A stretch of 63,989 bases of DNA, taken from the NCBI GenBank assembly GCA_034780895.1, contig JAUZTB010000027.1:12059641-12123629 (forward strand), read 5' to 3'. Below the pieces are notes generated by a model. It saw nothing but the letters and a program-made list of their open reading frames with translations. It had not been told where the DNA came from and searched no databases. The stretch comes from Rhynchobatus australiae (lineage: Eukaryota). How positions within the stretch are numbered: the first letter of the stretch is position 1; each line of letters starts with the position of its first letter. Of the stretch, positions 3,350-59,968 are shown piece by piece. Both the position numbers and the translations under genes were made by a program.

Positions 3350-3460
3350 TAATAAAAACAGTTAATGCTGGAAAAACTCAGCAGGTCAGGCAACATCTGT
3401 GGTAAGAGAAACAGTAAACATTTCAGGCCTGTGACCCTTTATCAGAACTGGGAAAGAGAA
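3350..3460 (-). mobile_element. Penelope-like terminal fragment, older subfamily
   Basis: aataaaaacag..aatgctggaaaaactcagcaggtcaggcaacatctgtgg...tttcaggcctgtgaccctttatcagaactg. Confidence 0.7.
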
Positions 3461-4269: not shown

Positions 4270-4577
4270 TGTTTTTCAAGATGATAAGAGGCATAGATAG
4301 AGTGGACAGTCAGAGACTTTTCCCAGGACGACAATGGCTAACATGAGGGGACATAATTTTAAGGTGATTGGAGGAAGGTATAAGGGAACACACTGCCGGC
4401 AGAGGTTGTGAGGGCAGATACATTAGGGACATTTAAGGGACTCTTAGATAGACACATGAATGATAGAGAACTGGAGGACTATGTGGGAGGGAAGGGTTAG
4501 ATAGATCTTAGAGTAGGGTAAAATGTCGGCACAACATCGTGGGCCGAGGGGCCTGTACTGTGCTGTAATGTTCTGTG
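4270..4577 (+). mobile_element. CR1-clade LINE 3' fragment
   Basis: IRGIDRVDSQRLFP-type ORF2 end plus the 3' tail gggccgaggggcctgtactgtgctgtaatgttct. Homologous to 15100-15450 and 39412-39740. Confidence 0.8.
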
Positions 4578-7500
4578 AAAAATTGAAAGGACTATTTAGC
4601 TACCATTATTGGCATTTTAAACAAAAAAACCCTTAGAAAATGTCATATCATGAAGGAATATATTGCAGTAAAAACATTTTTATTCCCTCTTGGATTTCGC
4701 ACTGTTGTGACTGTGAATGAGCCACATGGAGACTGGAGACGTAGATGTAAAGGTCATTATTCAGCACGACTATCAGGCATTCTGTGAATTTGTCTCTCAT
4801 GGAGACACTAGAGAAACTCTGCATTTCAGTGAGGTTTTATACCTTTTAAACCCAAAGATAATAAGCAATTAAATACAGTTTGTGTTTTCAATACCTACTT
4901 CAACATTTTGGGTTTTGACAGGTAATTTTGTAGAATTACATACTAACAATGGGAGCGCACCTCAATTGAGAGCATCTTTGAATATTCAAATACTGGTGGA
5001 TGGTCCGGGGGTTCTGAGCACAAACACCAGACACCCAATTATATTAGTATGTTGAGGAATGGCTCCCTGGATATACATACACCCAGAATATTAATTGACA
5101 AAACAAATGGCTTGAACTGTGTGTTAAGTGGCAGGGAGATTTCTTTAACTATGCATTAGTACAGGAGATGTCCACTTAATACCTTCCCTGATCTCATCCT
5201 GGGAGTTTCAGTGAGGTTTGATTAATGTAAATATTCACTTATTGTCTTCCCCTGTGTAGTTGCAGTGGTGCAGAATCAGAATATCCCATACCCAATGACT
5301 GGTTTCAATGTCCTTAAAGTATTGTAGAATGTTACAATGTTAAGTTGTTTTTGAGCAGTGGGTCCCTGTTTGTATTAACTGACTGTTACCCCTATTCCAT
5401 AACTCCTGAAAGATATCCCATGCTTAACGATCCTTAACACACAGTAGTTGCTGAAAATGCAGGTGCCCTGCTGGAGTGTCCATTGTGCTGCAGTGTGATT
5501 CACCAAGCCATGGAGATAATTTTAACTTCCAGTCCGTAAATCACTGATTGATCTTGGTTTTTAGTTCTGTGGCACCAGTCCTGTGTTGATTCATTTCATC
5601 TGTTGACTGTGACATTGCAACCCCAACATCAATATTTTTGGATTATGTTGTCAATGTTCATAAAGATAGCACTGTCAATGATGCATGAAGACAGGGATAA
5701 ATCAATATTTTTTCCAGTTTTTCAATTTTTTTATAATTCAGAGTGGGAAATTCATTGATTATTTACTGCAAGTTATCACACTGAAACCAAGGTTATAGAC
5801 TCTTGTGTGCTGTTTTTTCCAGGAAACTTAGTGTAAGTCACACAGTTGTGGATAACAGCTTCTCACTAGGAAGCAGAAAAACCAGCAGCTGGGGATCAGC
5901 CACCATCTGCCAACCCTGTGGAAAGTTTTTTTTGTATTTGACTTGGAATTACCCTAAGTGAAGATCTGAGAGCAATTTTGCCCTATTTTGGTCACAAAAT
6001 CAGGAGAGTGCCATTGAATTTGAAAGTGCTTTACAAAGATATAATTGTGCTTAACTGCTACAGTTTAAGTGGTGACACTCACCACTTCCAATTCTTCTTC
6101 AGTTGGTTTGTAATAGCTTTTAAATTTGTCTGAGATTTGCAACTTAAGGTAGGTTCCAAACTAGCAATCCTTCTTGCTCTCCATACCACCGCCATCAATC
6201 GCCATTCCTCCATCACCTCCAATCCCAAACTGCTCTAATGAAAGATTATTGACCTGAAACTTTAATACTTTCTCTCTCACTCCACAATTGCTGTCTAATT
6301 TAGAGAATATTTTCAGTTGTTTTTATTCTAGATTTTTAGCACCTCCAATATTTAGATTTTTCCCCCACATTATAGCGATATCAACTCTGTACTTTAGTTT
6401 AAGTGATTTGTGGGGTTTTTTTTGCATTTTGCTTTATTATATGGCCATTCAAGTGTAATCTGCATGGAGATTATGGAAGAAATGTAAAAAAGATTATAAG
6501 AGAAGGGATTGTTAATTTTACCAAGTATTCTAACCTTCCCTGATCAACATATTCTTTTTCAAATAGTCATTTGTATTCAATGTGGTGATGGATGTTAGTA
6601 AGCTCACTGTTATATTTGAGAATAGTTATTTGGAGATTTGTCTTTTTGCTAATTAAAGAGAAAAGCCTACTGTCTTCAAGTCCTCCATCCCTTCCCTCAA
6701 TTTTGAGACATAAGAAACGTACCTAATTTCCTCACCTGTTAATATTCTTAGATGCTTATCATTTATATCAGTATAAAATTCCTTCCTTTCACTGATACTA
6801 AGTGTTGCCTGTTCCTCTGTGGATTTTTTCCCCAGTCAAGAAATGTTTATCAGATGAGATTTTCGACTGCACTTTCATTGAGTGGTAAAGGTAGTAAGCA
6901 GTGATTCCTGCATGTTCCCTGCCTGGTTGTGTTAACCAAATAATGTCGGAATCACAGGAAATTTAACATGGCCAAGTCCCATATAAGCTGTGTTTAAGCC
7001 TGTGCCTCTGTTCTTCTTCCTTGTTAGAATTTTATTCTAATCCCATTTCACTGTTCTGCTGTCTTTTACTAACATTTGTTTTAAATCTAATACCAGTTGA
7101 AATCTTTTTTCTTTTTCAGTCTTGTATTCCTGTAAATGAATGGAAAAATAATCTACCAACCCTACTTTTATCTGTTTAGTAATGGTCCTCGATAACCACT
7201 GAAAAATACAATGCCAGAGATGAATAGATGGCTAGAAATAAGTGAAGCAAAGAACTAAGCAGCGAGTAATTTTGCTTTCGCAGAATTCTACAGACACAGT
7301 AATTAACCTCGGTGCTAGTGGATACAAATAGTCATATACTGTTCTGTCTGATTGCTTTACAGATATCAAAAGTGTGAATGTTGTGCCTGGTCAGGGTTTT
7401 AAAAAGCCCTGTGATGCAACCCATGTTGTAACACTTATTTTCTTTGCTAGATGGATGATTGGCCCATAAAGGATAGAAATTTTATCTCTTCAGGGAAATA

Positions 7501-7629
7501 ATTGTAAATGGATTTCTTGATATAAAATTTACCTTTTCCAAAAATAAAGGATTACAGGTGTTTTGCAAAAGATCTCTATTGTTTTCATTACTGGGTTCTA
7601 ATGAGTTAATTTGTCTATCTACTGTCTAG

Positions 7630-9457: not shown

Positions 9458-12400
9458 GTTGTAAAGACTACAGGGAACATGGATTTCAGCTTTGGGGTGT
9501 GGAAGTACCAAAGTTAATACTATGTTAGTGTGCACCTTGTTTTGGAGCAGTCTTTCGGGGATGTAATTTTCACTAGAACTGGAGATAATTAGTAATTTTC
9601 ACTAATTATCTCAGATGTTTAAATTGACGTAGGTATCGGGGTCTCTATTCCCCTTACCTGGGGACTCTACGTACTTTCTCATGAATGACAAAACGGCCAA
9701 GTTCTATGCCTTTTAGGCTTCTGATGAAACAGAACTCTAATTCACCATTCATTATTCAAGCATTACTTCCATCTCTCCTATTCAATTTGCCTGTTTGCTT
9801 TCGTCTCTGTGCCTTCATCGGGCACACAGTTAGACTTGAATATTCCATTGGGCAATTGCACGATCAGGTGAAAAGCATTATGTACCCTGATCCTACTATC
9901 GTATATTTCAACTTGGTACAATTTTTTTTGTGTGACGCCTTGTCTTTCTCTATTGTCTTTTGTACTTGACTATTGGCTGACCTAGAGTTTCATGACCATC
10001 TGGTATCTTTGTCTGACGGATGGCGTGACCCTTTCAAGCTTGCAAGAACAGACTTCTGAGTAAGAAAGCACATGGTGCCACATTGGCAGCACAAGTTATG
10101 GTTTGAGCATTCTGTCCAGTCTAACAGCACTATTTCCATAATTGTGATGTTAAGCCATTGAATTTGAGGTTATTCTTCTAATTTCTTGCAGACTCCTGAC
10201 AGTCCTGGAGGATTGGAAACCCCAATCCAGCCAAGCCCACATTGGTCTACATTCTGAAGGTTGTGTATTGGGGAGTACCTAATGTGGTGACAGTACTCCT
10301 GGGTGCACTCCATCTAAGAGCACAAACTGATTACATTTTGACTTTGAGTATGATTCAGACACTTAGTTTTAAACTGAAATGTCAGACAGTTGAGTATTTG
10401 TAGCACATTGGAAGAAAACTTTGAACAGAAATGAAAACNNNNNNNNNNNNNNNNNNNNNNNNNNNNNNNNNNNNNNNNNNNNNNNNNNNNNNNNNNNNNN
10501 NNNNNNNNNNNNNNNNNNNNNNNNNNNNNNNNNNNNNNNNNNNNNNNNNNNNNNNNNNNNNNNNNNNNNNNNNNNNNNNNNNNNNNNNNNNNNNNNNNNN
10601 NNNNNNNNNNNNNNNNNNNNNNNNNNNNNNNNNNNNNNTAACTGCCACATTAACACATTTGGTCTTGCCCAATCAAAGGTATTCCTTTTGTTCTATTGAT
10701 CCTTTCCCCACCTTCTCTGTAGCAAATTAAGTTCTGATAAAGGTCTTGAGCTTGAAAAGTTAACTGTTTATGTTACTGCAAATGCTGTCTGTCATACCAA
10801 GTATTTCAAGCATTCTCTGTCTTTATTTCAGATTTCCAGCATCTACAATTTTATTTTCATTTGAACAGGTGAATGCCCATAGTTGCAGCAGAATTAATGT
10901 ACTTCCTGCAATCAAATTAAAGTTGTTCTGCCCACCTACTGCCCAACTAAAACACCAGATCATCTCTTTAAATAAAAATGGAATTCCTGCCCTTTCAAGA
11001 CACTTGACTAGTGAACCTGATCCTCCTATTCCTCCAATGTAGAAGTCTGCAGGTGTAGCAATTCTTAGCTCTTCTGTCATTAGCTACTTAATTTGCATCT
11101 GGCAGCTTTGGCTCTTTCACTTACAGGATTATTTCAGTCTCGTAGCCCCCAAAACTCGTGGGTTTCATAGCCTAGATGTTTAGAAGGCATTTCACATGAC
11201 AATGTGAAGTTATTCTCTGCTCGTATATAATACTTGCTTCTATTTTTAAGAGGATAAAGTGAACAAGATTTTCTTGTGTTATGTAGGTGATGGACATGAA
11301 GCAGTCAGGAATATTATTGAACTATGTGTGACCGATCCTTCCTGACTTGTAAGAAATCCTCAACTGAGGATCCAGCCACTAACGCTGCTTTCAGATCGAT
11401 TAAATTGGGCTATAATTAAAATACAGTTCATTTCTCTCAATCTCAATGTGAAGTGTAACTCTGAAAACATTACGTTTGATATGTTTAATCATCCTTGCTT
11501 AATTAGAGAATTACTTCTATCTAGTGCAGGTCCAGGGCTGGATACCTGCAAGTTAATGCCACTCAAGTACCTGGGCATTTGCGGGGAATATGGAGATCAG
11601 GTAGTATTGGAAACTAGAGCCATTTGAATCTAGGCTTGCAGTGTATATCATATTTGGAACCTCCTTAAAATGTCATGAGGTCCTTTCAAGCCTAGACCAA
11701 ATAACATACACCACTGTGTGCNNNNNNNNNNNNNNNNNNNNNNNNNNNAACTTTTTGGAATATACATTTAAGTGAATTCTGTAGGAACTCTTTTTGCTTC
11801 TTAAATCTCACGCTTGATTTTTTTTTGCCAGCATCCCAGTAAAAAATGTTTAATCTTCCAGTTCTACATTTGTATATTCTGCACTCTCAGATGGACGCTC
11901 CTCTTCCATTTACAATCCTTTGAAAAGTGACATTTTCTGGTACTGCCAATAAACTTGGAGCTTGAGTATAACCAGAAGCACCTCTGGAACCTAGTGTCTG
12001 CCTGAATTGGTAGCTAAGCCACGATGTTGCTATGAACTAGTCCAAGTTGTTTTACAGAACTGTGACAAGGATTAACAAAATCAATGAACATTACCAAGTC
12101 AGGGATCCATTTGTAAGTGTAAACTGCTATAAGACAAGTTTCTCAGTAGAGCTATTGTGTGTATTTGGTTGTCATGTCGTAAATTTAAGGAATAAATTTG
12201 TATTTGGAAAAAAAAGTTCAAAAATAACTTGCAGCTTGACTTTGTAGGCACTTCACAACCGTGAGGCATAGGAAACCTGCCAAAAGGCCATTTTGAAGGT
12301 ATATTTATGGCAGGAGTGGGATGTGGAGAATTCTGCAGTGTTGGGAAAGTGTGGCAGGGACTTGGTATGGTGTGGAAAGCCCTTTCACAATGTGATGATA

Positions 12401-16345: not shown

Positions 16346-16851
16346 GTCCAGGTTCTCTTAATTTATGGTACTCACACTGTGTCAGTTTAATCTGCAGAAA
16401 ACTTTGCCATTCTGTCTCCATGAGGAAAAATAAACCCTTGGGACAAATCTAATTTCTTGAGATTTGAGAAGGAGACCTTTTTCAATTTGTCATACTTTCA
16501 ATGACTATATTTCCTTTGCTACATTTACAAGTGTGAAACTAATTGAAGTTACTTTCGTTGTAGTAAACGTTAAAAGTCATATCAGATCTGTTGGTGACAC
16601 AATAGGTGGGAGAGGTTTTCAACAATAACCTTCATTCATATCTACATAATAGCAAAATATTGCAAGGTTTAAATGTTATAACATTAAAAAAATGACACTA
16701 ATCTATGTAAGATAGTAGGAAATGGATAGCCAAGAACTTGGTAAGAGGAGGGATTTTGTTTTTTGGGGACTGGTGAGGTTAGAATGCAAAAACATTGATA
16801 TCTTCCAGGGTTGTTGTGCTGGAGGGGATTAAAGAGATGGCAAGGGGCCAG

Positions 16852-17675
16852 AGAAACAAAGGACTGCAGGTGCTGGAATCTGGATGAAAAACACGATGAT
16901 GCTGGAGGAACTCAGCAGGTCAGGTGCATCTGTGGAGAAAAGCAGGTGGTGAACATTTTGGGTCAGGACCCTTCAGGACTGAAGGCATTAAAAGGGAAAG
17001 CCCAATTTATAGGAGAGGAAAGCAGAGCAGTGATAGGTGGACAAAAGAGGGGAGGTGGGGTGGGCACACAGTAGTGATGGGTAGATGCAGGTTGAAGATG
17101 GTGATAGGCAGATGAGGGGAGAGCAGATCCATTGGGGGATGGGTCAAAGGTTAGAGAGGGAAAAAAAAGGGATAGAAAAAAAGAGGTTAGGAAAGGGAAG
17201 AAAAGGCATGGTGGGGGGTGGGGGGAGAAAGGGTGTGGGGATTACTTAAAGTGGGAGAATTCAATTTTCATGCCGTTAGGCTGAGTAGTGAACTAGGGAG
17301 TTCTGGAGAGCAGTCCCTGTGTGTGAAAGGCAGAAAGGGGTGGGGAGGGGAAGATAGACTTGGTAGTAGGTCCCATTGGAGATGGCGGAAGTGGCATAAA
17401 ATGATGGTTTTGGATATGTAAACTGGTGGGATGACAAGGGGGATCATATTCCCTATTGAGTCTGGGAGGGGTGGGAGTGAGAGCAGACGTGCGGGAAATG
17501 TCAGAGATACGGTTGCAAGCTCCCTCGACCACAGTCGGGGGGAAGTCCTGGTTAGAAAAGAAGTTGGACATCTCGGGTGTCCTGGAGTGGAAAGCCTCAT
17601 CATGGGAGCAGATGCGGTGGAGAAATTGAGAAAAAGGGATCACGTCCTTACAAGTGACAGGGTGGCAAGGGGCCA
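16852..17675 (-). mobile_element. Penelope-like retroelement fragment, same family as 26712-28372
   Basis: HPVTCKDVIPFSQFL..ICSHDEAFHSRT.EMSNFF matches the copy at 27702-28256. The terminal region (gatgctggaggaactcagcaggtcagg... agcagtgataggtgga) is near-identical to 26722-26893. Confidence 0.85.
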
Positions 17676-18597
17676 TACTATTTAAGTAATTGAACATAAG
17701 GAGCATTTTTAAATCTCTCAGTTTAACCAAGAAATGATGTTAGATCAGAAAAATGGGCACAGAGATTGAATTGGATGGTGCAAGTTAAAACACAGTAAAT
17801 AGTGTTTTGGATTACTTTTATGGAACATTGAACAAAGGAGACTGGCAACAAAGCTTACAAAGCTCCATCTAGTGTTAGGAGAATATAGCTATAGACATGG
17901 CTTCCAGTACATTACCACTCAATCAAAGAACGCATGGTACTCGTGGTGAAATGGCATGCATTAGAAATATAATATACTGGCCCAGATTTTGCACTTGTAA
18001 TGAGAGAAAAAACTATTAGCACTTGTGAATACACAGAAACTGTTAGTAGCTTTGGTATTTACAGACATGCATAGTTTAACATGGGAATCCTAAATCTGCC
18101 ACCTTTGAATCCTACTCCACAGACCTTATGAGCAAGGAAGATCGCTGATTAATGAGAAATTATTTACATACTAGTCCTGCTGCAAGGATAGGCTGAAAAT
18201 GTTATACTTAATATTTTTAAAGCCAATGTCAGTTTTTAATAGCTAGGTTAGCCACACTTTCTGCCCAAAAGAAATCATTAATTTAGGGTGTTTGGATTGT
18301 AATTCCCATTCGTTTTAAAACAATGGATTTTAAATGTCAACTTCATAAGCTTCTACCTTGTTTCAGACTTTATTTCACAGTCTGTTTTTAAGAAGAAAAA
18401 TTGTGTTATGTTCTTCCTGGCTTTCCCTCTGTGAGAATTCTGTGATGAGATTTGTCTGCTAAACCAGCTTGCTGATATAATGCTACTCAATGCCAAGTAT
18501 CAGTTTGAACATCAGGTAAAGGGAAGTCCACCACACAGATGGTGGATCATTATGGGTGTTTTTTTTTTAAGGCCAACAAGCAAGAACTGTGCACCAT

Positions 18598-18725
18598 GGA
18601 ATAAAAACAGAAAATGCTAGAAACACTCAACAGGTCAGGCAGCATCTGTTATGTGTTCTCTTTCCATGGATGCTGCTTGACCTGCTAAGTATTTCTAGCA
18701 TTTTCCATTTTTATTTCAGATTTCT
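18598..18725. repeat. Fold-back (inverted) element made of two Penelope-like termini
   Basis: aataaaaacagaaaatgctagaaacactcaacaggtcaggcagcatc (~18600-18646) pairs with gatgctgcttgacctgctaagtatttctagcattttccatttttatt (~18669-18716) around a ~22-nt loop. Confidence 0.85.
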
Positions 18726-20762: not shown

Positions 20763-22324
20763 CTGGAAAAAGAAACCTTTAAAATTACATTAGCTGTTTC
20801 ACAGAAATGTAAGTTAATGCACCCTAAAGAGCTATGATGTAGAAAGAGTGCTATGTCACATGGGTAAGTGAGTAATCAAGAATCTCAAATTCAATACTTC
20901 AGTTGAAACATCTCCATCTTCACCAGTTCTGGTCCAACTTAACTATTGCTCCAACCTGCTATTAAATTAAATCAATTTTTTTTTATTTANNNNNNNNNNN
21001 NNNNNNNNNNNNNNNNNNNNNNNNNNNNNNNNNNNNNNNNNNNNNNNNNNNNNNNNNNNNNNNNNNNNNNNNNNNNNNNNNNNNNNNNNNNNNNNNNNNN
21101 NNNNNNNNNNNNNNNNNNNNNNNNNNNNNNNNNNNNNNNNNNNNNNNNNNNNNNNNNNNNNNNNNNNNNNNNNNNNNNNNNNNNNNNNNNNNNNNNNNNN
21201 NNNNNNNNNNNNNNNNNNNNNNNNNNNNNNNNNNNNNNNNNNNNNNNNNNNNNNNNNNNNNNNNNNNNNNNNNNNNNNNNNNNNNNNNNNNNNNNNNNNN
21301 NNNNNNNNNNNNNNNNNNNNNNNNNNNNNNNNNNNNNNNNNNNNNNNNNNNNNNNNNNNNNNNNNNNNNNNNNNNNNNNNNNNNNNNNNNNNNNNNNNNN
21401 NNNNNNNNNNNNNNNNNNNNNNNNNNNNNNNNNNNNNNNNNNNNNNNNNNNNNNNNNNNNNNNNNNNNNNNNNNNNNNNNNNNNNNNNNNNNNNNNNNNN
21501 NNNNNNNNNNNNNNNNNNNNNNNNNNNNNNNNNNNNNNNNNNNNNNNNNNNNNNNNNNNNNNNNNNNNNNNNNNNNNNNNNNNNNNNNNNNNNNNNNNNN
21601 NNNNNNNNNNNNNNNNNNNNNNNNNNNNNNNNNNNNNNNNNNNNNNNNNNNNNNNNNNNNNNNNNNNNNNNNNNNNNNNNNNNNNNNNNTTAAATGTGAG
21701 ATTGCCCTATTGTATAAGAAAAAAAATAGTTTCTCTGCTTCATTCCCAGATGCCCAATAACTGCTGGTAGCGAGGAATCTTATGCCACGGGAAAGAGACT
21801 ATTTGGCCTATCAGGCCTCTGCTAACTCTTATTTTTCTTATCTCTTTTGAAAGTTACTATTAAATTTGCATCAGCTGCCCTTTCAGCCATAGCACACCAA
21901 ATCACAGACATGCTACACTTTTTAAAAAATTGTCTCCATCTCTCCTCTGGATTGTTTGCCAAATATCTTAAAAATGTGAACTGTTTATTTCTCTCCATAG
22001 ATGCTGCCTGACCCACTGATTTCCTCCAGCATTTTGTGTGTGTTGCAGCAGAAGCAAAATACAAGTTTTGATGGATAGGCCGAATAAAGCTTCAACAAAA
22101 AATCCATTCAAAAGACCTTTGGACATTAAAACAATTAGACTTTTACTTGGTAATTGTATTTTCCTATATTTAAAAAAAATAGTCCTAACTTAGGAAAATA
22201 TGTTATAAACACCAGTTTATTAGTGAAAAATATATAATGCCCTATTGTTATAATTCTACAATAATGACAAGCCAACAAAGAGCAATTTTCTGCGATACAT
22301 ATTAAATGATTAACTTTTTAATAT

Positions 22325-22670
22325 CTGTAATAAAAGCAGAAAATGTTGGAAACACTCAGCAGTTCAGGCAGCATCTGTGGAAAGAGCGGTTAGAGCTTCA
22401 GTCAGGGACTCTTCATCACAACTAGGAAAGAGAGCATCTCTTTCACCGTATCATTCTTATCATTCATGAAAAATCTCTTCCAGTGTCTATGAAAGTGAAA
22501 GTGGTTTTGCTTCCCAAGTCCCCTAAGCTTTTTCTCTTTCCCAGTTCTGATGAAGAATCCTAGACCTGAATCATTAACAGTTGCTACTTCCACAGTGGCT
22601 GCCTGAACTGGAGGGTTTCCAACATTGTCTAGTTTTATTTCAGATTGCCACCATCTGCAGATTTTTTTCT
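22325..22670. repeat. Fold-back element with inverted Penelope-like termini
   Basis: Left arm ~22330-22425 and right arm ~22540-22660 are imperfect reverse complements, each with a hammerhead-like remnant (cttcatca / ctgatgaag). Confidence 0.75.
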
Positions 22671-25004
22671 TTTGATTTTTAACAATACCTGTAGATGGGA
22701 CAACAGCAGAAGGCAGGTCTTAGACCCATACCTATAGAGTGCAATGCACACAAGGTTCACCAGCTATCCATCACGCTCTGCATGCATATGCAGAGCTCTA
22801 ATTGATTAAATTTAAACCATTTTAAAGTTTGAGTTTGCACTGTGTCAGAGTTAAAATGTTTTGTTTGTGAATCTCAAATATAATAGAATGCATGTGATCT
22901 TATTTAATTAAATTTTAGGGAACTTGGGAGGCAATACTATTTTCACTTCCATAGGTACTAGAAGGGACTTTGCATTAATGATAAAAATGGTACAGTGAAG
23001 CTGAAACTAAATACATTAGTTGAATTTAGTCCTAAAATTTTGTAACCCTTATAAAACACCAAAGTTTTGTTCTTGCAGTTTCTGGGACTATTTAGACCCT
23101 GAGGTTAATCTACAACTCGCAGTCNNNNNNNNNNNNNNNNNNNNNNNNNNNNNNNNNNNNNNNNNNNNNNNNNNNNNNNNNNNNNNNNNNNNNNNNNNNA
23201 TGATTCATGCAAGTTATCTAACAAAGTGTATTACAGAAAAAAATACTGTAGGTTATTTATTTTTGATAGAATTTTTCTAGGCAAGGATATAAGAGCTGTG
23301 GAGCCAAAATCAGCAGAAGAAATTGCGACAGAATCAACCATAATCCCTTTGGATGGCAGTACTGCCTAAAATCGCTAAATACCCTTCTCGTTTCTTAAAT
23401 TCCTCTAAGCCACAATTAAGTGAGTTAACAATAAAGAATCTGGCTGGGGTTGGGGGCTGGTGGGAGCGAGTCATTGCAATAGGGTTTGATGTTTCTGCTT
23501 CTCATCAGAGTCTGTCACATTTCACTAGCCAGTCAAAGGATGGGCAATTTATCAAGTGCTACAGAAACTTTTTATACCATTACTGTAAACAACAGCAAAG
23601 AAGGAGCATGCCTCAAGCAGTAGCTGATAGCAGCCAAACAGTTANNNNNNNNNNTGCTTGCTATGTTGCCTAATAAGGCACTCACAAAGATGAGATCCTC
23701 TCCTGAAAATATCCATATATCTGAAATGGTATTATTGCACTTACAGATATTACACCTTCTACAGAAGGAAAACAATTTTAAAATGCTTTATTCACATGCT
23801 GTAGGTTGGCCAGCAGTATATTTGAATCTCCAAAATTCTCTGACCAAGCAACTCTGTATGTTTTGAGGATTGTTCATTAAAATATTGACTTCACAGTTTT
23901 CAAGTGAATACACATTTAACTTTGCGGCTACATATATTTTGTTATCATGGAATAATGCTAGTACTGTGTATCATCTGATACACTGTGAACAGCACCACAG
24001 CAGGCACTGTATACAGGAACTTCCAAAACCTCACGTTAAAGCAAACTTTTGGTCACCCAACCTAACATCTTCTCTTGGGCTCCAATGTTCTTCTGATTAG
24101 CTTAACAATGTCTTCCATTAAGATGCTACATTGATGGGAATTGCTGTTGTTAAACTAATTGGTTTACCTAGGTAATATTATCAGAAAGTAACACACAAGT
24201 ATATAATAAATACATTTGTTAAATCTGACAAAGGTGTTCTTTCAAACTGACAGAAAAATTCTACATTTAGTAATTACTCTGTTATTGCCAAGTTGCTCCA
24301 ATTCCCTGAAAATAATTTGCACAGTTGTCCATTCTCCAACATAACCAGCCGACTCCTGTGTTTATTTTTCCACTGAAGAGAGCAAGACTGCTACAAACTT
24401 GGAAACAGAACTATAATTGTCTTACTTGAGTATGCCAGACAATGCAAATTACTCCAAAAGCCAAAACTGGAGTTACTGGAAACCTGATGTAAGAACAGAA
24501 TCTGCTGAAAATATTCAGCAGATCAGGCAGCTGACGAAATGTTAATAAAAATTATTAGCTCAGTTCCTCTTTCCAGAGATGCTGCCAGATATGCTGAACA
24601 TTTCCTTCTTTTTCAATCTTTTTATTGAATTTCAAGTTAATTCAAATTAATATACACAACATTAATGAATATACATATGGTGCGAAGAGATTGGGATAAC
24701 AATAATAACAGTTAATAATATACACTCACAGGGAGTAAAATATATAATGTGGACCTCCCACTCTCTTGCTAAGTGAGCATGATACAAAAAAAATTGAAAA
24801 GAACTTTAGCTGTATGAAAAGAGAATCCANNNNNNNNNNNNNNNNNNNNNNNNNNNNNNNNNNNNNNNNNNNNNNNNNNNNNNNNNNNNNNNNNNNNNNN
24901 NNNNNNNNNNNNNNNNNNNNNNNNNNNNNCAGATGGAATTAGAGTGGATTTAGTGCCGGACGGATTCCAGCTGATGTCTGGTGTGTAAAAAAAAATTAAG
25001 ATGG

Positions 25005-26339: not shown

Positions 26340-26625
26340 ATCAGAGTCCTGTAGAGAGACAGCACTGAAACAGGCCCTTCGGCCCACCAAGTCCACACTA
26401 ACCATCAACCACTGTTTACACTAATCATACATTAATCCCATTTTCCCTGTACTATATCGATTCCCCAGATTTGACCGCTTACTTACACACTAGAGGCAAT
26501 TTGCAGTGACCTATTAGCCTGCCCACCTTTGGGATGTGAGAGGAAACCCACACAGTCACAGGGAAAACTAACTATAACCCTGGTGCTATGAGGCAGGGGC
26601 TCTTGTAGTTGTGCTACTGTGCCAC
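26340..26625 (-). mobile_element. HE1-like (V-SINE) elasmobranch SINE
   Basis: The minus strand has a tRNA-like head (ggcacagtagcac...ctgcctcatagcaccaggg), a V-domain-like core (ctgtgactgtgtgggtttcctctcacatcccaaag) and a CR1/HER1-like tail (gtgggccgaagggcctgtttcagtgctgt). Confidence 0.7.
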
Positions 26626-26711: not shown

Positions 26712-28372
26712 AAAAAAACATGATGCTGAAGGAACTCAGCAGGTCAGGCAGCATGCGTGGAGAAAAACAGACGGTCAGCGTTTCGGGTCAGGACCTTTCT
26801 TCAGGACTGAAGATAGGAAAAGGGGAACCCCAATATATAGGGGGAAAAACAGAGCAGTGATAGGTGGATGAAAGAGGGGAGGCGGGGTGGGCANNNNNNN
26901 NNNNNNNNNNNNNNNNNNNNNNNNNNNNNNNNNNNNNNNNNNNNNNNNNNNNNNNNNNNNNNNNNNNNNNNNNNNNNNNNNNNNNNNNNNNNNNNNNNNN
27001 NNNNNNNNNNNNNNNNNNNNNNNNNNNNNNNNNNNNNNNNNNNNNNNNNNNNNNNNNNNNNNNNNNNNNNNNNNNNNNNNNNNNNNNNNNNNNNNNNNNN
27101 NNNNNNNNNNNNNNNNNNNNNNNNNNNNNNNNNNNNNNNNNNNNNNNNNNNNNNNNNNNNNNNNNNNNNNNNNNNNNNNNNNNNNNNNNNNNNNNNNNNN
27201 NNNNNNNNNNNNNNNNNNNNNNNNNNNNNNNNNNNNNNNNNNNNNNNNNNNNNNNNNNNNNNNNNNNNNNNNNNNNNNNNNNNNNNNNNNNNNNNNNNNN
27301 NNNNNNNNNNNNNNNNNNNNNNNNNNNNNNNNNNNNNNNNNNNNNNNNNNNNNNNNNNNNNNNNNNNNNNNNNNNNNNNNNNNNNNNNNNNNNNNNNNNN
27401 NNNNNNNNNNNNNNNNNNNNNNNNNNNNNNNNNNNNNNNNNNNNNNNNNNNNNNNNNNNNNNNNNNNNNNNNNNNNNNNNNNNNNNNNNNNNNNNNNNNN
27501 NNNNNNNNNNNNNNNNNNNNNNNNNNNNNNNNNNNNNNNNNNNNNNNNNNNNNNNNNNNNNNNNNNNNNNNNNNNNNNNNNNNNNNNNNNNNNNNNNNNN
27601 NNNNNNNNNNNNNNNNNNNNNNNNNNNNNNNNNNNNNNNNNNNNNNNNNNNNNNNTTGGATACATAGGCTGGTGGGATGAAATGTGAGGACAAGGGGGAC
27701 CCTATCCCTGTTGGGTCTGGGAGGGGTGGGGGGTGAGAGCAGAGATGTGGGAAATGGCAGAGATGCAGGTGTGAGCTCTCTGGACCACAGAACAAGGGAA
27801 GCTATGGTTAGTAAAGAAATTGGACATCTTGGATGTCCTGGAGTGAAAAGCCTCATCATGGGAGCAGATGTGGCAGAGGCGGAGAAACTGAAAAAAAGGG
27901 ATAGCGTCCTTGCAAGAGAGAGGGTGGGAGGAGCTGTAATCAAGGTAGCTGTGCATGTCAATGGGTTTGTAGAAGATGCCGGTGGAAAATGAATCTCCTG
28001 AGATGGAGATGGAGAGATCGGGAAAAGAATGAGAGTTATCAGAGATAGTCCAAGGGTATTGGAGAGCCAGGTGAAAATTGGTGGCGAAATTTAAGAAACT
28101 GTCGAGTTCCGTACGGGTGCAAGTGGTGGCACCAATGCAGTCGTTGATATAGTGGAGAAAGAGTTGAGGACTGGGGCCAGAGTGGGCTTGGAACAGAGAC
28201 TGTTCAATATAGCCAATGAAGAGGCAGGCAGAGTTGGGGCCTATGTGAGTGCCCATGACTACACCTTGGTCTGCAGAAAGTGAGAGGAATCGAAAGAAGA
28301 GTTGTTTAGGGTGAGGACAAGTTCAGCCAGGTGGAGGAGAGTGTTAGTGGAAGGGGATATGAGTTCAGTGGG
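26712..28372 (-). mobile_element. Penelope-like retroelement, 5'-truncated and degenerate, interrupted by an assembly gap
   Basis: ORF 28256-27702 encodes PLE-type RT motifs: MGTHIGPNSACLF, YIND (decayed YIDD), FYKPIDMHSYLDYSSSHP..CKDAIPFFQFLRLCHICS. The terminus at 26712-26893 carries the hammerhead-like core. Confidence 0.88.
26772..26809 (-). ncRNA. Minimal type I hammerhead ribozyme motif (degenerate) in a Penelope-like terminus
   Basis: The minus strand reads CAGTC-CTGAAGA-AAGGTCCTGACCC-GAAAC-GCT-GACCG. CUGANGA and GAAAC are intact; the cleavage triplet is mutated to GCU. Confidence 0.62.
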
Positions 28373-29129
28373 GCAAGAGCACGCAGAGACAATAGGTTTG
28401 CTGGGGCAGTCCTTCTTGTGGATTTTGGAAATTGTTTCTCCAGTTTCTCTAGAATTTCTCTCTTTCTCATCTCCACTAATACATTTATCACCTAGAAGTT
28501 TTTAGTTTACGACATCTAGCTCACCCTGCCCCCTACTTCAAATGGTGTTACAAATGGACAACGTACGAAAGGGCTAAAACTTGATCCCTGGGCAAAGTTA
28601 GAAGGGATACCTTGAGAGCAAGAAGAGAAGCTTGTGCTCAAAACCTAGAGTAGTGAAGGATAGAGCTAAGAATGGTTGTCCCATGGAGCTTCAAAGTGCA
28701 GGAGAGGTATTGGGTGAAAAACCTGTGTTTGACTATGTCACAGGCAGTAAAGGGGTGAAGGAAAGTTGGTGTTCCATTGCATGCTCCATAAACTCCAATA
28801 GAGTCAAACTCCATAGAAGAGCAGAACCCTACATGTAGAGGTCAAACATGAACTTACAGGAAAATCAAATGGGCATGTGCTTGCAACTCAGTACTACGTT
28901 CAAGGACTTTGTAGAGAAAAACATATTTGGAGGTCTGGCAGAAGTTCAGAGGCTAAGGGTGAGTCACATGACTATCGATCAACCATTTGTAGTACATTGT
29001 GTTCTTGTTTCAATTAGGAGTTCGGTTTCAAGGTTAGGCATTCAAGATTAGCATTTGTGCTAGAGGTAATGCGTTTGATGGTGTTGGTGTTACTAAAGCT
29101 GCCCTACTATGAATGGCCCAGAAAATAAA

Positions 29130-29420
29130 TAGAAAAAAGAGACACAGCTGATTCTGCAGATGCTGGAATCTGGACCAACACTCAGAAAGTGCTGGAGGAA
29201 CTCGTTGGGTCAGGCAGCATCTATGGAGGGAAACAAGCAGTCAACATTTCAGGTCGAGACCCTTTATCAGCACCGGCAAAGCCAGAATGAAAAATGTAGT
29301 GGGGAGAAGCACCAGCTGGTTGGTGATAGGTGAGCACAGGTGAGGGGGGAGGGGTTAGGTAGGTAGGTAGCTGGGAGGGGTAGGGGGTTGAGAGGGAGTG
29401 ATGTGAGAAAATAGAGAAAA
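29130..29420 (-). mobile_element. Penelope-like terminal fragment (non-autonomous)
   Basis: ctgcagatgctggaatctgg...gctggaggaactcg..gggtcaggcagcatctatggaggg...cagtcaacatttcaggtcgagaccctttatcag, the same terminus as the RT-bearing copies. Confidence 0.75.
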
Positions 29421-29759: not shown

Positions 29760-30074
29760 AGAACTTGGATGCCCCATCAACGGTTCCCATGGCGACGAAT
29801 GGCGCCGGTCGCGCTTCCGTCAGACGCAGCCGGACGGGGCCGGCGGTCGCCCCGGCAACGCGTGGCGCCGCCCGCCGACGGAAATGATGAGGGGGAACCG
29901 GCCGGAAGAACGGGGGATGGCTTAACGGGTGGCGCACAATTCGAGAAGCTTCGACGTGGACGGTGTGCGGGGGGCCTCGAAGGAATAAACCTGACGGGGG
30001 GGAGGGAGGCCGGTGGGAGGTTGACGTGAACCAGGGCGGCTGGTCGGTCCGAGTGGTAACGTGAGGTGCGGGAC
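29760..30074. promoter_or_regulatory. CpG-island bidirectional promoter (C16orf46 minus / MPLKIP plus)
   Basis: Sharp rise in GC and CpG from ~29770 to ~30800. X-box-like GTTCCCATGGCGAC (29783-29796) and GTCGCCCCGGCAAC (29846-29859), ETS cores (CGGAA/TTCCG), a YY1-like ATGGCG, and HSE aTTCgaGAAgcTTCg (29939-29953). Confidence 0.8.
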
Positions 30075-30689
30075 ATGTTCCGGCCCGTGAGGCAGGGCTT
30101 CCGGAGCCCGCCGCCCGTAGGCCCGAGTCCGGGCCCGTTCCCCGGCGTGGGACAGGCCGGAGGGGGCGGCACCTTCCCCTGGGGGTTCCCAGGCAACGCC
30201 GGCACCCCTCCTTACGGGGTGCGGCACCGGGCCTTCACCAAGTCCCCTCAGCAGCAGCAGCAGCCGGGCCCGGGCCTGGCGCCCTTTCACCAGCAGCAGC
30301 ACCGGTACAAGAGCCCGTCCCCCGGTCACCACCACCAGCAGCAGCAGAGCTTCACGCCTCGCCACAGCCCCCGGCACCGCGGCCACTACTCCTCGCCGCC
30401 TTATCACCCTCTCTCACCCGGTCAGGCCGCGTCTCAACAACCTTCGCCCGGCTCGGGGCATCGCCGTTACCCGGGCTCACCCAGGACATCCACGCCCTTC
30501 GGTGGTGGAGGAGGAGGTGGCTGCCTCCTGGAGAGGAAATCGCCGGCGCCCGTGGAGCTGTATTACAAGCCGTCCATGCTGCAGGACCCGTGGGCTGACC
30601 TGGAACCGGTCTCCGCCTCCGACATCAGCCGGCAGTACAGTAACGTGCAGGCCGCCAGCTCCACTAAAAGAGGCAGGTACTTTAGCTAG
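30075..30689 (+). CDS. MPLKIP: M-phase-specific PLK1-interacting protein (TTDN1) homologue, intronless CDS, 204 aa
   Basis: ATG at 30075 (gacATGt). G/P/Q/H-rich N-terminus with TPPYG and HSPRH, then GSPRTSTPFG and the conserved C-terminus YYKPSMLQDPWADLEPVS..DISRQYSN...KRGRYFS, matching human YFKPSMLEDPWAGLEPVS..DISQQYSN...KKGRYFC. Confidence 0.93.
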   Translation: MFRPVRQGFRSPPPVGPSPGPFPGVGQAGGGGTFPWGFPGNAGTPPYGVRHRAFTKSPQQQQQPGPGLAPFHQQQHRYKSPSPGHHHQQQQSFTPRHSPRHRGHYSSPPYHPLSPGQAASQQPSPGSGHRRYPGSPRTSTPFGGGGGGGCLLERKSPAPVELYYKPSMLQDPWADLEPVSASDISRQYSNVQAASSTKRGRYFS

Positions 30690-33600
30690 CAGCTTCTCCA
30701 AGCAACAGCAGAGCCGGGCAGAGAGCAGATTGGACCCCTTTCTCCCACCTGCACTCCGGGTAAGGTAGCAAAACTGACCTCCGCAGTGCTGTCTCACACC
30801 CGGTGAACACTTGTCAAGAACTTATCGTGGTTCCCACTGTCAATGCTTTCCGGAGACAAAAGCCTTTTTTAAAAAAAAATTACTTTTTTTTTGCAGATTG
30901 ACTTTTTTAATGAGACCTATTTTTTTAAACCACACCGAGTTTTTCTTTTCTTTGCAACACATGGGAGCTCTTTGGATGTTATCTGGGAGAGTGCAACCGC
31001 TGCAGAATAGGAAAGTGCCTGCTCCAAGTAACTATTTAAACCGTTCTTTAAAATCACCAGCCAGTGGACAGTGACTAATTGTTTTGCAGGTTTCCTCCAC
31101 TTCTATGCATNNNNNNNNNNNNNNNNNNNNNNNNNNNNNNNNNNNNNNNNNNNNNNNNNNNNNNNNNNNNNNNNNNNNNNNNNNNNNNNNNNNNNNNNNN
31201 NNNNNNNNNNNNNNNNNNNNNNNNNNNNNNNNNNNNNNNNNNNNNNNNNNNNNNNNNNNNNNNNNNNNNNNNNNNNNNNNNNNNNNNNNNNNNNNNNNNN
31301 NNNNNNNNNNNNNNNNNNNNNNNNNNNNNNNNNNNNNNNNNNNNNNNNNNNNNNNNNNNNNNNNNNNNNNNNTTTTGTGTTTTTAGTTTTTTCCAGAAAT
31401 TGTAGATAAGAAATTGAGCGAATTCTTTCATTTTGAAAACAACTTCACCTAAATGTAAAATAATTTGTCTGGGTTTGCATTTATAACACAGTGAAGATGG
31501 GGAAGAATTTTATTATGGTGTCAGGAGAGAGATTTCTTTTGGTGACATAGCTCTAATTGTAGTTTGTTATTTATCATAAATTTTGCTTGTTTTTTTTCTA
31601 AAAGCTTAGAGCATGTAGAAATGATGCTCTTTGTACCTTGATTATGGACAGATGGGTACACTCTTTAATTTTGTTTGCAAGCAGTTGATGGCCAGGAAGA
31701 AAAAGGTGTTATCTTTCTCTTATATTGGTACTGGAGCCTAGTAAAACCCAGTTATTCTTACATGTATAGCTCCTGAGGTTTGCTGAATATTTGGCAAGGT
31801 CATCAAGGTGAACAACAATGATGTGTACATTTGGCATGTACTAAAGCACTTCATGATGGAAGTCTTTGAATGGTGACGGTGACTTATCCCTTTCTCCTCT
31901 TTCCCCATACCAACTATTGCCCTAGCTTCCAGCTGGGTTTGATTTGCACAAAGGGCAACAGTTGAAACTAGGGAACTTGTACTGCTCTAATCAAACTCCT
32001 ATTTAACTTTGAAAATAGCAGGCTGTTGCAAATCCATTAGCGGCTCTATTAGGTTTGGAAAACAATATTATGGTGAAATGTTGTTTGATGGGAGGAAATG
32101 TATTCAATATATTTTGTTTCTAAACATTGAAATAATTGACTTTTTTTTTGTCTTGTCATACTTTGGTTAATAGTCACAGTCATGTTTAGGAAGGGGGGGA
32201 ATAAAGAAATGTATATTTGTTTTATATACATGCAAAACTTGTCAGGGCCACATCTGTTGTCTTTTAATTGACAGATACATCAACTGTGTTTCTTAATATT
32301 GTTTAGATTTTAGCTTTGCAGGAACAAAATACTGTACATTAGTGCTTTCTAATATGTTATCCTTGTCAAACAGCACATCCTCTTGTTTAACTCCAGGAAT
32401 CCTTCAGTAATATTAAAAAAAAACTATGTCCATTGCATGTTTCCTGTCTTATCACACTCCAGTCACGTTTGAACTGGCCTATTTGAAGAGTATGAAGAAA
32501 CTTCCTTTGGGTTGCCTTATGGGACCCTGTGGAAGAATATATGTTTACATTTCCTGTTGTGCTTCTCCAGTTCCTTTACAATGAAACAATCCCCCATTTG
32601 GAATGTACCGTTAGGAACAGAAGAATGGGATGTGTGCAATCCATTAATTGGTTCTCCAAGTCACACTATAAAAGGCAAATCCAAATCTATAACCCCAATA
32701 ATAGTTAAATTCTGACTAAATCTGATGCGTACTGACAGCAAGTTGATTGTACTTTGTTGCAGTGGTGAGGCATGTGTTAAGTGTTTCTGTCTGAATTATC
32801 AATCAGAAGCAATATTGTTCAGATGGTTTATTGTTGATTTCTAAATGGTTTTGTGATCCTTTAAATTACTTACTACTTTTTTTTGAGACCTTTCAAAATG
32901 AGGGTTAGTCTTCAGTAAATTGAAAGTGACATTGTGTAGGAACATAATGGAGTTAGGACACAGTAAGCAAGAGTACTGTAAGTGCTTAAAGTTTGCAAGG
33001 TGATAATTTGATGTATAAGTAGAGAATACTATGAAAAGAGAGAGTGATCAGTGATTATGAGAGTGCCCTGGTTAGTATTGTCACCCAGTGTATTCATATC
33101 TTTCTATCAATAGGTACTTGTGTGGGGTGAGGTGGGGAAAACTACAGAATATGTTGGGGGAAAAAGTCAGTAAGTGATTAGAGGAGGAGGGATGGGAGTT
33201 GGTTTACATTTGAAACACTTTCATTTTCTTTTTTGACTTGGAGAAATAGGGTAATAGGAGGGATTGTGTTTAATGACTTGCAACAAAGATTGTGACAGTA
33301 ATGAACTTTGCATCAGCGGTTGATGCTTTTTGCAAACTGGAGATCGAGTAAACAAATTACCACCTTCATTGTACGTAAATGGTTAAAAGGAAGATACTTT
33401 AAGTATTTAAATTTATTCTTCTGCACACATCATAACCCACCATCAATGAAGATATAAATTGAAACATATGTCAACCTGAGCCAAGTTTGCACCCATTTTA
33501 CATTTTGAGTTGGAAGCGGTTATACCTTTTGCAATCCCATGCCTAAAACATGTTATCGGATATGTGATAACCGAATACAAGAACAGGGTGGCTAGACATG

Positions 33601-47060: not shown

Positions 47061-49345
47061 ACAAGTTAACCCAACTCGTCTTTTAAATCTATAAGTGTAC
47101 TCCCCATCCACTGCAGCGCTCATGGATTATTAAATCCCAGGATGCAAGTTACTCTCAAGGAGTCCTTGAATCAAAAGCAAATAAAAGCATAACATTCTCC
47201 AGATACTCGGAGGGTAGGCAGCATCTGCGTTTCAGGTAGATCAGAATTGGGGACTGAGAAAAGTTGGAGATGATCCCTTTTTTCTGCCATTTAAAACTTG
47301 CTTTATGGATGGAGATAGATAAAGGGAAGATACCTGACGGGATGCAGATCAAGAGAGAGTGAGTGAAACATGGAGGTGGCGCTGCTGAAAGTAGATGGTC
47401 CAGATAAACCTCGGTGAACAACAGACGCTACGTTTGGATAAGAGACGAATTGAATCTGAAATATCGGGGGTGGGAGAAAGCTGAACACTGAAAATGTGAG
47501 ATACAAGGCTAAAATGGCTTCGACATTGACAATGAAGTTGACACGTTCAGCTAACCAGTTCACGTATGTGGATGGGTTGGTCACACTTCCAGTCAGCAGG
47601 TCATGGGGTGAACTCCCACACCAAAGACATTGGCATGAAGATTGAGACTAAGGGAGTACTGAACTGTCAGAGGTCTGGCTTTTAGATAGAGCGTTAGTTT
47701 AACATAATTGGGTCTGGACGTCTGTATTGTTACAGGTCGACAGGCGAGGTGTTCTTTCAGCTTGCAATGCTGTGTAGAAGGTCGAATGCAGAGAGAGGGT
47801 CAGGGTTAAGGTGCTTGCAAACGTGCAAACTAGCAGCAGGAATAGGCCTTTTGACTCATCAATCCTATTCCACATTTAATAAGATCATGTTTGATCTGAT
47901 TTTAACCTCAACTGTGTTCCAATAACCCACAATAACCTTTTACCCTTGTTTATCAAGAATCTATCTAAAAAAACATTTAAAGGTTGCTTCTAGCAATATT
48001 GTTCCAAAGACTCCTGACGTTCTGAGAGAAATAAATTGCCTCTATCTTAAATGAATAACTTATTCTTAACCTTAAATTTGCAACCACACAAAAAGCGCTG
48101 GAGGAACTCAGCAGGTCGGGCAGCATCTATGGAGGGAAATAGACGGTCAACATTTTGGGTCGAGACCCTTAAGCTCGACTGCAAGCAAATGGGACCAGCT
48201 CAGATAGACACGTTGGTCAACCTGGACGAGTTGGGCCGATGGGCCTGTAGCCGTGCTGCATAACACTGACTCAATAAATAACATTGCGAAGTTTCCTAGT
48301 TATGTGCTGCACCTGCATGCTAACCTTCTGGGAATTCTGCCCCAGGACACCCAGGTCCCTCCGCATCTCAGAGCTCTGCAATCTTTCGCCATTTAGACAG
48401 CATGCTCTGTTTTTATTTATTTTTTCCTACCAAAATGGACATTTAACATTTTCTCATACTCAATTTGCCAGATCCTTACCCACTCACTTAACCTCTCCAT
48501 ATCCCTTTGCAGTATCCTGTCCTCTTCACAACGTTCTGGAATAAAACATACATGAAATGTAGGAATTACTCGGCGGGTCAGACAGCGTCGGTGCAGGGAG
48601 ATACTGATTTAACACTTTCAGGATCGGGGTTCTGATATAAAGTCATCGCCCTGCAGCATTAACGCTTTCCATACCTCTACCTTTGTGTTTCTACCAACCA
48701 CGATTAACCCTTCCATTTCTAACTTGGCTCTTCCCCCACCCCTCCCCACCGCCCTGAACTCAAACAAGATTCACCCTGCACCCCCAACCACTTCCAATCC
48801 ACCTAGTCCTTCCTACCAGCACTAACCCTACCGCTCCCCAACTCTGCACTGAACTCCATTTGGATTTCGCTTCTCACATCCGAGTTGAAGTGTCGCGTTT
48901 CCAAGCAACTTTCGGTCTTCACACCTGGTCCCTTGATGTGTTTTGCTTAAATGTTGCTGCTAATTTGTGGTCCCAGCCAGAATTAACCGGACTCTGCCTA
49001 ATTTACTGGTTGCTGCGCCGAGTGCTTTAAATTTTAAAGAGGTGCCCGCCCCCTTCTCTTCCTCCCTCCTGTTACACGCCTGGGACTCTTCGTCGATTGG
49101 GGTGTTGCGAAGACTTGATCGTCATCCGCGTCACTGCACTTTGAGCCCAGATCCCTCCGTAGGCTGTTTAATGTATTTCCCCGCCGTTTACATAGGAATA
49201 GGTTCCGCAGTGCTACGGCAGGCACGGAGTTATCCAGGCGGACCACAGAAAAAAAAAATGATGTGGTTTTAGGTTCCCCAGCATAGAGGTCCCGGCCCAT
49301 CGCTTGCAAACCCGGTCCAGCCTTTGCTCGACTCGCCTACCATCC

Positions 49346-59160: not shown

Positions 59161-59930
59161 CCCTATTTGGGTGCATTGTCAAAATTCCCGCAGCATTTCT
59201 CGGAAGATAAACCAGAGTGTTATCTTGGTGTAAAATCAGAAAACATTGTAAGTGCTCAGCGGGTTAGGAAGCAGATCACTGAGAACAGAAATGCCTACAT
59301 CCGCTCCTCTCTCCAGATTTCCATTTTGGCTTTTATCTTGTTCTCCGCTGTCCTTGTTCATCGCCTTTCATTTACATCTCCTCCAGGCAGACGAGCTGCA
59401 ATTAACCAACCCTCACCCTCTCTCGGCAGCAATGATCTGTGACGTTCATTTTCTCTTGATCTTCTAAAGACCTTCTGTTCTCTCTACCCCACCTCTTTCT
59501 CTGCAAAATGCCTGTTTTCTAACTTTTCCACAAGTTCCTTGAATTGAAATGTTAACTTTGTTTCCTTTCCCACCCCCTACCCACACCACCCCAGGTGCTG
59601 CCTGATTTGCTGAGTATTTACAGCATTGTCTGTGTTTACTTCAGATATCCAGCTTCAGTATTTTTTTTGTTTTCCAAGTTCTCCCCAGTGTCCTGGCTGA
59701 TATTTATTCCTCAATCAATGTTGCAAAAATAATTGTTTGGTATCTTTTTTTTTGTGGGAGCTTGCAATGTGCAAATTAGTTGCAGTGATTCCTACAACAG
59801 CTTCAAAAATGTTTCACTGTCAAGAGTAAAGTAGTCACTAGAAATTCTGCAGATGCTGGAATCTGGAGAAACGCACACAAAGTGCTGGAAGAACTCAGCG
59901 GGTCAGGCAGCANNNNNNNNNNCAAATAAA

Positions 59931-59968
59931 CAGTCGACGTTTCAGGTCGAGACACTTCACCAGGACTC
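59931..59968 (-). ncRNA. Minimal type I hammerhead ribozyme motif (degenerate) in a Penelope-like terminus
   Basis: The minus strand reads GAGTC-CTGGTGA-AGTGTCTCGACCT-GAAAC-GTC-GACTG: stem I AGTC/GACT, CUGANGA box with one substitution, stem II, intact GAAAC-GUC cleavage site. Confidence 0.65.

Follow-up and report, generated by a model that had tools for sequence, protein, structure and literature searches.

The short repeat that recurs through a 63,989-nt stretch of assembly GCA_034780895.1 (Rhynchobatus australiae; hereafter the window) is best read as the pseudo-LTR (pLTR) of an endonuclease-bearing (EN+) Penelope-like element (PLE), likely of the Neptune clade. The minimal hammerhead of its master copies is predicted to be weak and dimeric, and its short copies likely come from uncleaved RNA; we give this reading as a whole a probability of about 0.78. 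Minimal hammerhead ribozymes (min-HHRs) are known from the pLTRs of metazoan PLEs (Cervera and De la Pena 2014, PMC4209133; here and below, statements taken from the literature refer to excerpts of the papers cited). Since this class of motif is published, the family is another PLE carrying a min-HHR, and the bare finding is ordinary; its scale and its subfamily structure are what could matter. The role of the hammerhead in EN+ PLEs has been described as unclear (PMC8557442). In the present genome, canonical and core-variant lineages occur side by side and cDNA ends can be mapped, which provides genomic evidence on that role. Among the papers listed in our literature searches, we found no description of a shark or elasmobranch Penelope element or of chondrichthyan hammerheads that would correspond to this family. 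A 2017 study by Lunse et al., which reportedly deals with PLE hammerhead variants, may cover such cores.

A profile made from the terminus found 24 copies in the window (E<=0.05) and none in the reversed window, and a second profile, trained on random genome regions, found 21. The preliminary description had listed ten cores, all of which read as described, in position and strand. Its estimate of about ten copies in 64 kb was too low, as the window contains 21-24 copies of a repeat of about 100-140 nt (Table 1). Nine of the ten listed cores lie within significant profile matches; the exception, 48629-48664, is a marginal match (E 0.063) that forms an inverted pair with 48552-48622 and has decayed. 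About a dozen copies had not been listed, for example 22337-22423 on the minus strand and 21971-22038, 35777-35847 and 50506-50588 on the plus strand. The claim that every copy has a core substitution agrees with our reading, in which each of the 14 window copies that reach into the core has a substitution there or has lost some of it. A structure descriptor likewise detected no intact motif across the window, whose copies are dead.

Table 1. Copies of the terminus, and parts of the element at 26712..28432, in the window
Position	Strand	Feature	Remarks
3364..3449	-	Solo terminus	G8A, C15.2U; profile and core reading
6232..6321	+	Solo terminus	Old, heavily decayed
10730..10819	+	Solo terminus	G8A, C15.2A
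16850..17691	-	Second subfamily-B element	RT thumb, ORF-end remnant, 3' UTR, hammerhead with short deletion, tail
18608..18704	18608-18649 -, 18656-18704 +	Inverted pair of terminus fragments	Both without core
21971..22630	21971-22038 +, 22337-22423 -, 22543-22630 +	Three termini	
24496..24612		Inverted pair of terminus fragments	
26712..26771	-	3' end of the copy	Conserved sequence 3' of the hammerhead; lacks the optional tail
26772..26809	-	Decayed minimal type I hammerhead motif	Subfamily B; C3 at 26804
26810..26893	-	Pyrimidine-rich 3' UTR/pLTR directly upstream of hammerhead	Ends YCAG; matching segment in siblings
26894..27655		762-N gap	Ungapped siblings have Cys linker, GIY-YIG endonuclease and most of 3' UTR here
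27656..28432	-	Broken 5'-truncated PLE reverse-transcriptase fragment	
29183..29273	-	Solo terminus with tail	Subfamily A; G8A, C15.2U
48090..48179	-	Solo terminus	Subfamily A/E cluster; 5' half of core lost
48552..48677	48552-48622 -, 48628-48677 +	Inverted pair	Plus-strand member marginal
59876..59967	-	Solo terminus	Subfamily A; nearest to intact in window (A6G)
15981-16014, 35777-35847, 43790-43871, 50506-50588, 59532-59632	-, +, -, +, +	Further dispersed fragments	

The element that carries one of these termini had been drawn as ending at 28372, and its reverse transcriptase (RT) homology continues to about 28432. The RT fragment has an internal deletion, a frameshift near 28268 and YIND in place of the YIDD of its siblings; a Pfam scan of its peptide gave no match. 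The motif downstream of it, with a predicted scissile bond at 26777/26776, is damaged by U16.1C and G10.1A, and the end at 26712 is the first of the two 3' ends seen in siblings. The reported junction between the terminus and a PLE RT is real in siblings and is not present in the window itself; because the gap separates the two parts there, only the siblings show the link, and EN+ membership likewise comes from them, since the endonuclease interval of the window is the gap. A first look at the whole genome (2.23 Gb) gave 16,981 RT candidates, 150 of which were scored, and the best 30 loci were examined for the terminus. In 11 of these 30, the window locus counted, a terminus follows the RT fragment on the same strand, in eight cases at 793-895 nt (890 nt in the window); the other 19 have gaps, short contigs or no match within 1.5 kb.

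In ungapped siblings, the order is RT, CX2CxxC linker, GIY-YIG-like domain with CxxC/H/H, a pyrimidine-rich UTR of about 300 nt, and hammerhead. The DKG motif, the linker (in sibling L070) and the CxxC/H/H residues are visible in the sibling protein. Pfam scans of six sibling peptides placed RVT_1 above the cut-off in one and gave neither GIY-YIG nor any other match in the endonuclease peptides. Two of four scanned homologues have both RVT_1 and GIY-YIG, the latter above the cut-off, and the sibling C-terminus aligns to the GIY-YIG region of a homologue (38%, E 5e-24); the best named homologue of the sibling protein is a bamboo-shark protein with 60% identity. A full-length, frameshifted copy, L291, has the terminus at both ends of the ORF, which is a pLTR structure found also in L202. 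Its ORF begins with an ATG 137 nt after the cleavage triplet, and this start aligns to Met1 of the homologues. The 3' terminus is present in L292 and the 5' junction in L293. Inverted partners were found at 8 of the 30 RT loci and 19 of 140 copies picked on their flank, and of the latter 76 have the optional tail, 59 lack it and 5 could not be assigned. In subfamilies A to E (see below), the ORF end leads into the terminus, which is also joined to the ORF start. Domain order, pLTRs at both ends and agreement with the published min-HHR consensus thus support the original identification of a PLE terminus with a minimal type I hammerhead, and the repeat, by its sequence, is the pLTR of an EN+ PLE. 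At one further locus (L053, G000:C33:33771000-33780900), two same-strand RT fragments lie 2.7 kb apart, possibly a partial tandem interrupted by gaps.

Inverted partners and an optional tail of 30-40 nt are hallmarks of PLEs (PMC8557442). As in the Neptune EN+ PLEs (Craig et al. 2021, PMC8557442), a single ORF encodes RT and then GIY-YIG with CCHH, DKG and a CX2-5CxxC linker, and pLTRs, inverted 5' partners and the optional 30-40 nt tail are found. The presence of the linker excludes Penelope and Poseidon. It is common to Neptune and Nematis, of which Neptune is the likely placement. In the excerpted part of one survey, the only vertebrate PLEs are Neptune and Poseidon (bioRxiv 10.64898/2026.07.22.740005). 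In contrast to Neptune, a (TA)n target bias was not seen by eye in the flanks of the present copies. A whale-shark preprint describes PLEs as expanded.

When 146 copies were clustered on the columns downstream of the cleavage site, with the core columns excluded, each majority sequence was hammerhead-shaped. The CUGANGA, GAAA and NUH core is present in the majorities of subfamilies A, B and D, and is absent as such in C (CUGAUGCA), in E (U4A) and in all window copies. In A, B and D, every core position is canonical, and N7, N17 and loop II vary. Exact matches to 28-nt core patterns numbered 681 for A, 1,160 for B and 27 for D (one pattern), with none for the reversed patterns used as control; a pattern with a loop longer by one base had just 14 matches in the genome. 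The consensus drawn from the window by eye is real and corresponds to subfamily A, whereas the copy at 26772-26809 belongs to B, which has N7=A, loop CCUG, a GUU triplet and a 3-bp helix I. Subfamily D is the most diverged and has U2.1-A1.1 instead of C2.1-G1.1; helix I is just 3 bp in B, C and D. Canonical cores persist both in the oldest subfamily (D) and in the two that have diverged least (A and B). A tree of 28 copies linked to an ORF end has B, A and D clades, with E unresolved and one E row sister to A, and gives no order of events.

Of the stems proposed earlier, GGGTC/GACCC (helix II) is better drawn as 4 bp with a 4-nt loop and one extra A after A9 (found between 9 and 10.1 in 134 of 146 rows). 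Stem III is reduced to a palindrome as had been described, in agreement with the palindromic 15.2-16.2 of published min-HHRs; this pair is C-G with CpG decay. Pair 10.1-11.1 is G-C or G-U in 90 of 144 rows and A-U in 25, a change confounded by CpG decay, and helix II is otherwise almost invariant except for such decay. Pair 2.1-1.1 switches from C-G to U-A between subfamilies (47 and 34 of 116 rows), which is the one clean event of covariation. The motif resembles min-HHRs (PMC4209133) in being of type I, with CUGANGA plus one extra nucleotide, G10.1-C11.1, palindromic 15.2-16.2 and no loop III, as well as in its short helix I, U-rich upstream sequence and mainly solo copies of truncated PLEs. 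It differs from them in a helix II of just 4 bp, and the CUGAUGCA and U4A subfamilies lie outside the consensus CUGANGAH given in the excerpted part of that paper.

The divergence of copies from the cluster majority was 98/841 (11.7%) at non-CpG core positions, 559/3,514 (15.9%) in the flank and 191/520 at CpG sites. The lower value of the core fits constraint on the masters with neutral decay of the copies, although heterogeneity among subfamilies in their flank could produce it as well. Among loci chosen on exact cores, the descriptor found an intact motif in 10 of 20, 18 of 25 and 4 of 10. The view of the copies as fossils of an intact consensus is supported for A, B and D, which have intact majorities and exact siblings, and not for C and E, where the non-canonical core was already in the master.

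Subfamily C has C at position 9 in 18 of 20 cluster rows, 281 exact matches and 15 of 76 random core-spanning copies. Subfamily E accounts for 12 of 30 rows of the A/E cluster, 214 exact matches and 7 of the same 76 copies. We regard U4A as a subfamily trait because U4C and U4G together, taken as a control, have only 84 exact matches (about 14 of them U4G); moreover, U4A travels with its own flank letters. Fixed core changes are therefore found in 22 of the 76 copies, or about 29%. Six copies with U4A and two of the C type are linked to an ORF end, and GAAAC-GU(C/U)-GAC is unaltered in both C and E. Core mutations usually cost most of the activity of a hammerhead, while a U4C viroid variant still works in vivo (PMC3088659); because of this variant, a loss of catalysis in the U4A and CUGAUGCA cores is an extrapolation. 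A literature search for U4A and A9C variants gave nothing relevant.

A scan with Rfam Hammerhead_1, which had been proposed as a check, does not detect the motif: at a threshold of E<=10, neither the window nor any of six loci carrying exact cores matched an Rfam hammerhead family. Neither feature of canonical type I hammerheads that we looked for, a covariance-model match and a 6-bp helix I with loop-loop tertiary contacts, was found. No double hammerhead appeared in the minimum-energy homodimer folds of four real copies, and in the monomer fold of subfamily A the core pairs with the cleavage triplet. Alignment folding of 55 termini recovered neither helix I nor helix II, the signal being blurred by decayed copies; nor did alignment folding show the tail pairing with the post-hammerhead segment in a conserved hairpin. 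The lack of an active fold in silico, together with the 3-bp helix I of B, C and D and the amplification of two subfamilies with altered cores, might be taken to mean that the motif only has the shape of a hammerhead, was at no time catalytic in this lineage, and is a relic kept for promoter function or protein binding. We consider this quite unlikely, as the A, B and D majorities are canonical at all core positions while the free positions vary, and the homologous motif of the anole cleaves in the presence of protein (PMC11167929).

The scale of the family was estimated from eighty 10-kb regions taken at even steps from seven large contigs. These 664,386 called bases contain 150 copies, with none in the reversed control, which extrapolates to about 4x10^5 copies in the called part of the assembly; no intact motif was found in the 80 regions. 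Against this total, and about 1,900 exact canonical cores in three patterns, stand 4,000-9,000 motifs in coelacanth and Xenopus, obtained by another counting method (PMC4209133); the hosts named in the excerpted part of that paper include no cartilaginous fish. The subfamily-B terminus is also abundant in contigs from four runs of four other organisms, and across their copies the only motif positions that vary in at least 10% are CpG places. The repeat had been called one of the most abundant SINE-like repeats of the genome, and the abundance is real, while the copies are truncated PLE ends and not SINEs. One of the commonest short repeats in these genomes is thereby explained.

It is very improbable that the short copies are an independent SINE, or a tandem retrozyme family replicating via circular RNA. 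Most copies are indeed short, and PLE-derived type I hammerheads of non-LTR retrozymes have been reported in one chondrichthyan genome together with PLEs (bioRxiv 10.64898/2026.07.22.740005). Those retrozymes, however, form tandem arrays, whereas the present copies are dispersed 5'-truncated solo ends. They occur solo or inverted, and tandem arrays were not seen, although assembly gaps could hide them. One 76-nt local tandem (L177, 1440-1600) contains an incomplete third unit besides two exact subfamily-B cores, lies next to an inverted RT fragment, and would be compatible with a retrozyme; it is a candidate natural dimer. Two other close pairs (C2:54.55 Mb, C2:0.516 Mb) were considered as tandem dimers and rejected, since each lies on either side of an N gap and looks like an assembly duplicate. 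The junction of the terminus to the ORF end in A to E and to the ORF start, and the variable 5' ends, also argue against this explanation.

The 5' ends were mapped in 140 copies chosen on the downstream flank of the motif alone. Two sets of 3,913 and 4,131 matches each supplied the 70 at the head of its list, and all of these lie at one end of a single contig (C1). Fifty-nine junctions were censored, chiefly by assembly gaps, and 81 mappable ends were left. Relative to C3, 29 of the 81 fall at -10..+6 (2.2% per nt at risk), 28 further upstream (0.35% per nt) and 24 at +7..+38 (0.64% per nt). The interval -10..+6 was set on the first 60 copies, and its excess was reproduced in the 80 new ones (p 2e-6); copies picked on exact cores show a like peak at the edge (25 of 67). 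Only three of the 81 ends coincide with the scissile bond (+28). Seven events lie no more than 2 nt from the cleavage site, a slightly raised rate of 1.1% per nt (1.6% in subfamily A), and therefore a minority of cleaved templates is possible.

The peak of 5' ends could reflect a pause or template switch of the RT at the folded motif, or a YCAG splice acceptor, instead of a transcription start; we hold this to be the less probable explanation, though a serious one. An inverted partner is present at 15 of 38 edge junctions as compared with 1 of 36 upstream junctions. A pyrimidine tract and YCAG precede the core at helix I in all subfamilies, and an intron of D. virilis ends at helix I (PMC4209133). 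However, the edge excess persists without the inverted copies (20 events/751 nt versus 35/9,695). The 23 non-inverted edge copies share no spliced exon upstream and nothing common beyond other repeats, and four of them (L013, L155, L173 and L288) have 9-11 nt duplications beside both ends, which look like target-site duplications. As for a donor, a donor-like GTAA opens the UTR of about 300 nt, right at the stop codon, in A, B, C and E, and the GT is missing in most D copies. A pLTR intron (GTAA ... YCAG) is possible from these sequences, and no precisely spliced copy was seen among the copies linked to an ORF end.

The variant subfamilies (22 of 76 copies) and the 5' ends at the edge of the ribozyme (29 of 81) suggest uncleaved RNA as the template, so that the spread of the element likely involved no self-cleavage of its RNA. 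Alternatively, cleavage may be required and the C and E variants may be cut in trans in mixed dimers, as cheaters on the canonical ribozyme; canonical RNA would give CUGANGA/GAAA and the variant only the intact ACGU-H/helix I arm. The retained GAAAC-GU(C/U)-GAC of C and E would allow this, min-HHRs have been reported to work as dimers (PMC4209133), and canonical cores have lasted in the oldest D as well as the least diverged A and B. However, 5' ends at the scissile bond are rare, the six U4A copies are joined to their own ORF end, and in the anole PLE cleavage is dispensable in vitro, with zero RNA-seq reads ending at its site (PMC11167929). Cutting in trans thus seems unlikely to us.

The unit consists of a 5' hammerhead, 137 nt, ATG, RT, Cys linker, GIY-YIG, the UTR of about 300 nt, a second hammerhead and the optional tail, and the hammerhead of the master copies is predicted to cleave only weakly, as a dimer. 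The junction map suggests that the RNA starts at a pLTR promoter near CAGUC, an initiator-like stretch. The protein would nick DNA and start cDNA inside the RNA at two nearby sites, by analogy with the biochemistry of the anole PLE (PMC11167929); priming about 60 or 100 nt past the cleavage triplet would yield the tail-less and the tailed copies. The cDNA would then pass the uncut hammerhead and run off the 5' end of the RNA, leaving solo copies of 100-140 nt as the junction map suggests, and copies with the ORF would come from read-through transcripts only. The ribozyme would likely be accessory, processing or limiting read-through RNA, and be kept in the long term while dispensable in each round of copying. 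The pLTR of Penelope contains an internal promoter (PMC2377424).

The closest biochemical parallel is PAc, a Poseidon PLE of the green anole, which has two internal start sites for reverse transcription in its RNA and a hammerhead that cuts only with protein, cutting being unnecessary for insertion (Frangieh et al. 2024, PMC11167929). Like PAc, the present element has two 3' ends about 35-40 nt apart, a hammerhead near the ORF start and signs of an uncleaved template. In contrast, PAc lacks the Cys linker and belongs to a different clade, its ORF begins within helix II whereas the ATG here follows the cleavage site by 137 nt, and it has been tested biochemically while the present element is known from sequence alone.

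A more far-reaching version, which we put forward tentatively and at slightly less than even odds, is that the broken-core lineages (U4A and CUGAUGCA) each reached tens of thousands of copies, that the hundreds of thousands are run-off cDNAs of uncleaved transcripts starting at the 5' arm of the ribozyme, and that cleavage is dispensable in vivo. If this is true, a pLTR start site combined with internal priming makes SINE-like repeats as a by-product, and the genome offers a natural experiment on the purpose of hammerheads in PLEs. Four natural RNAs of the family could be compared in one assay.

Several other features lie near the termini in the window. A sub-threshold Rfam match to SNORD69 at 52013-52090 on the minus strand (29.6 bits, gathering 37; E 0.27) has a C-box-like UGAUGA and may be a real C/D snoRNA or chance. 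Two open frames had no Pfam match: one of 338 aa at 19773-20789 on the minus strand, probably a host exon, and one of 615 aa at 7610-9457 on the plus strand with many TQT motifs, which we presume to resemble the last exon of ATMIN. On the plus strand, an intronless ORF at 49262-50233 has CBM_21 (E 1e-29) and presumably represents a glycogen-targeting PP1 subunit, and a GC-rich single-exon ORF at 30060-30690, about 1.6 kb from the RT end of the element, matches Pfam MPLKIP (E 1.5e-13). Just past the 3' end of the element, at 26345-26600, is another repeat, which we take to resemble the shark HE1 SINE.
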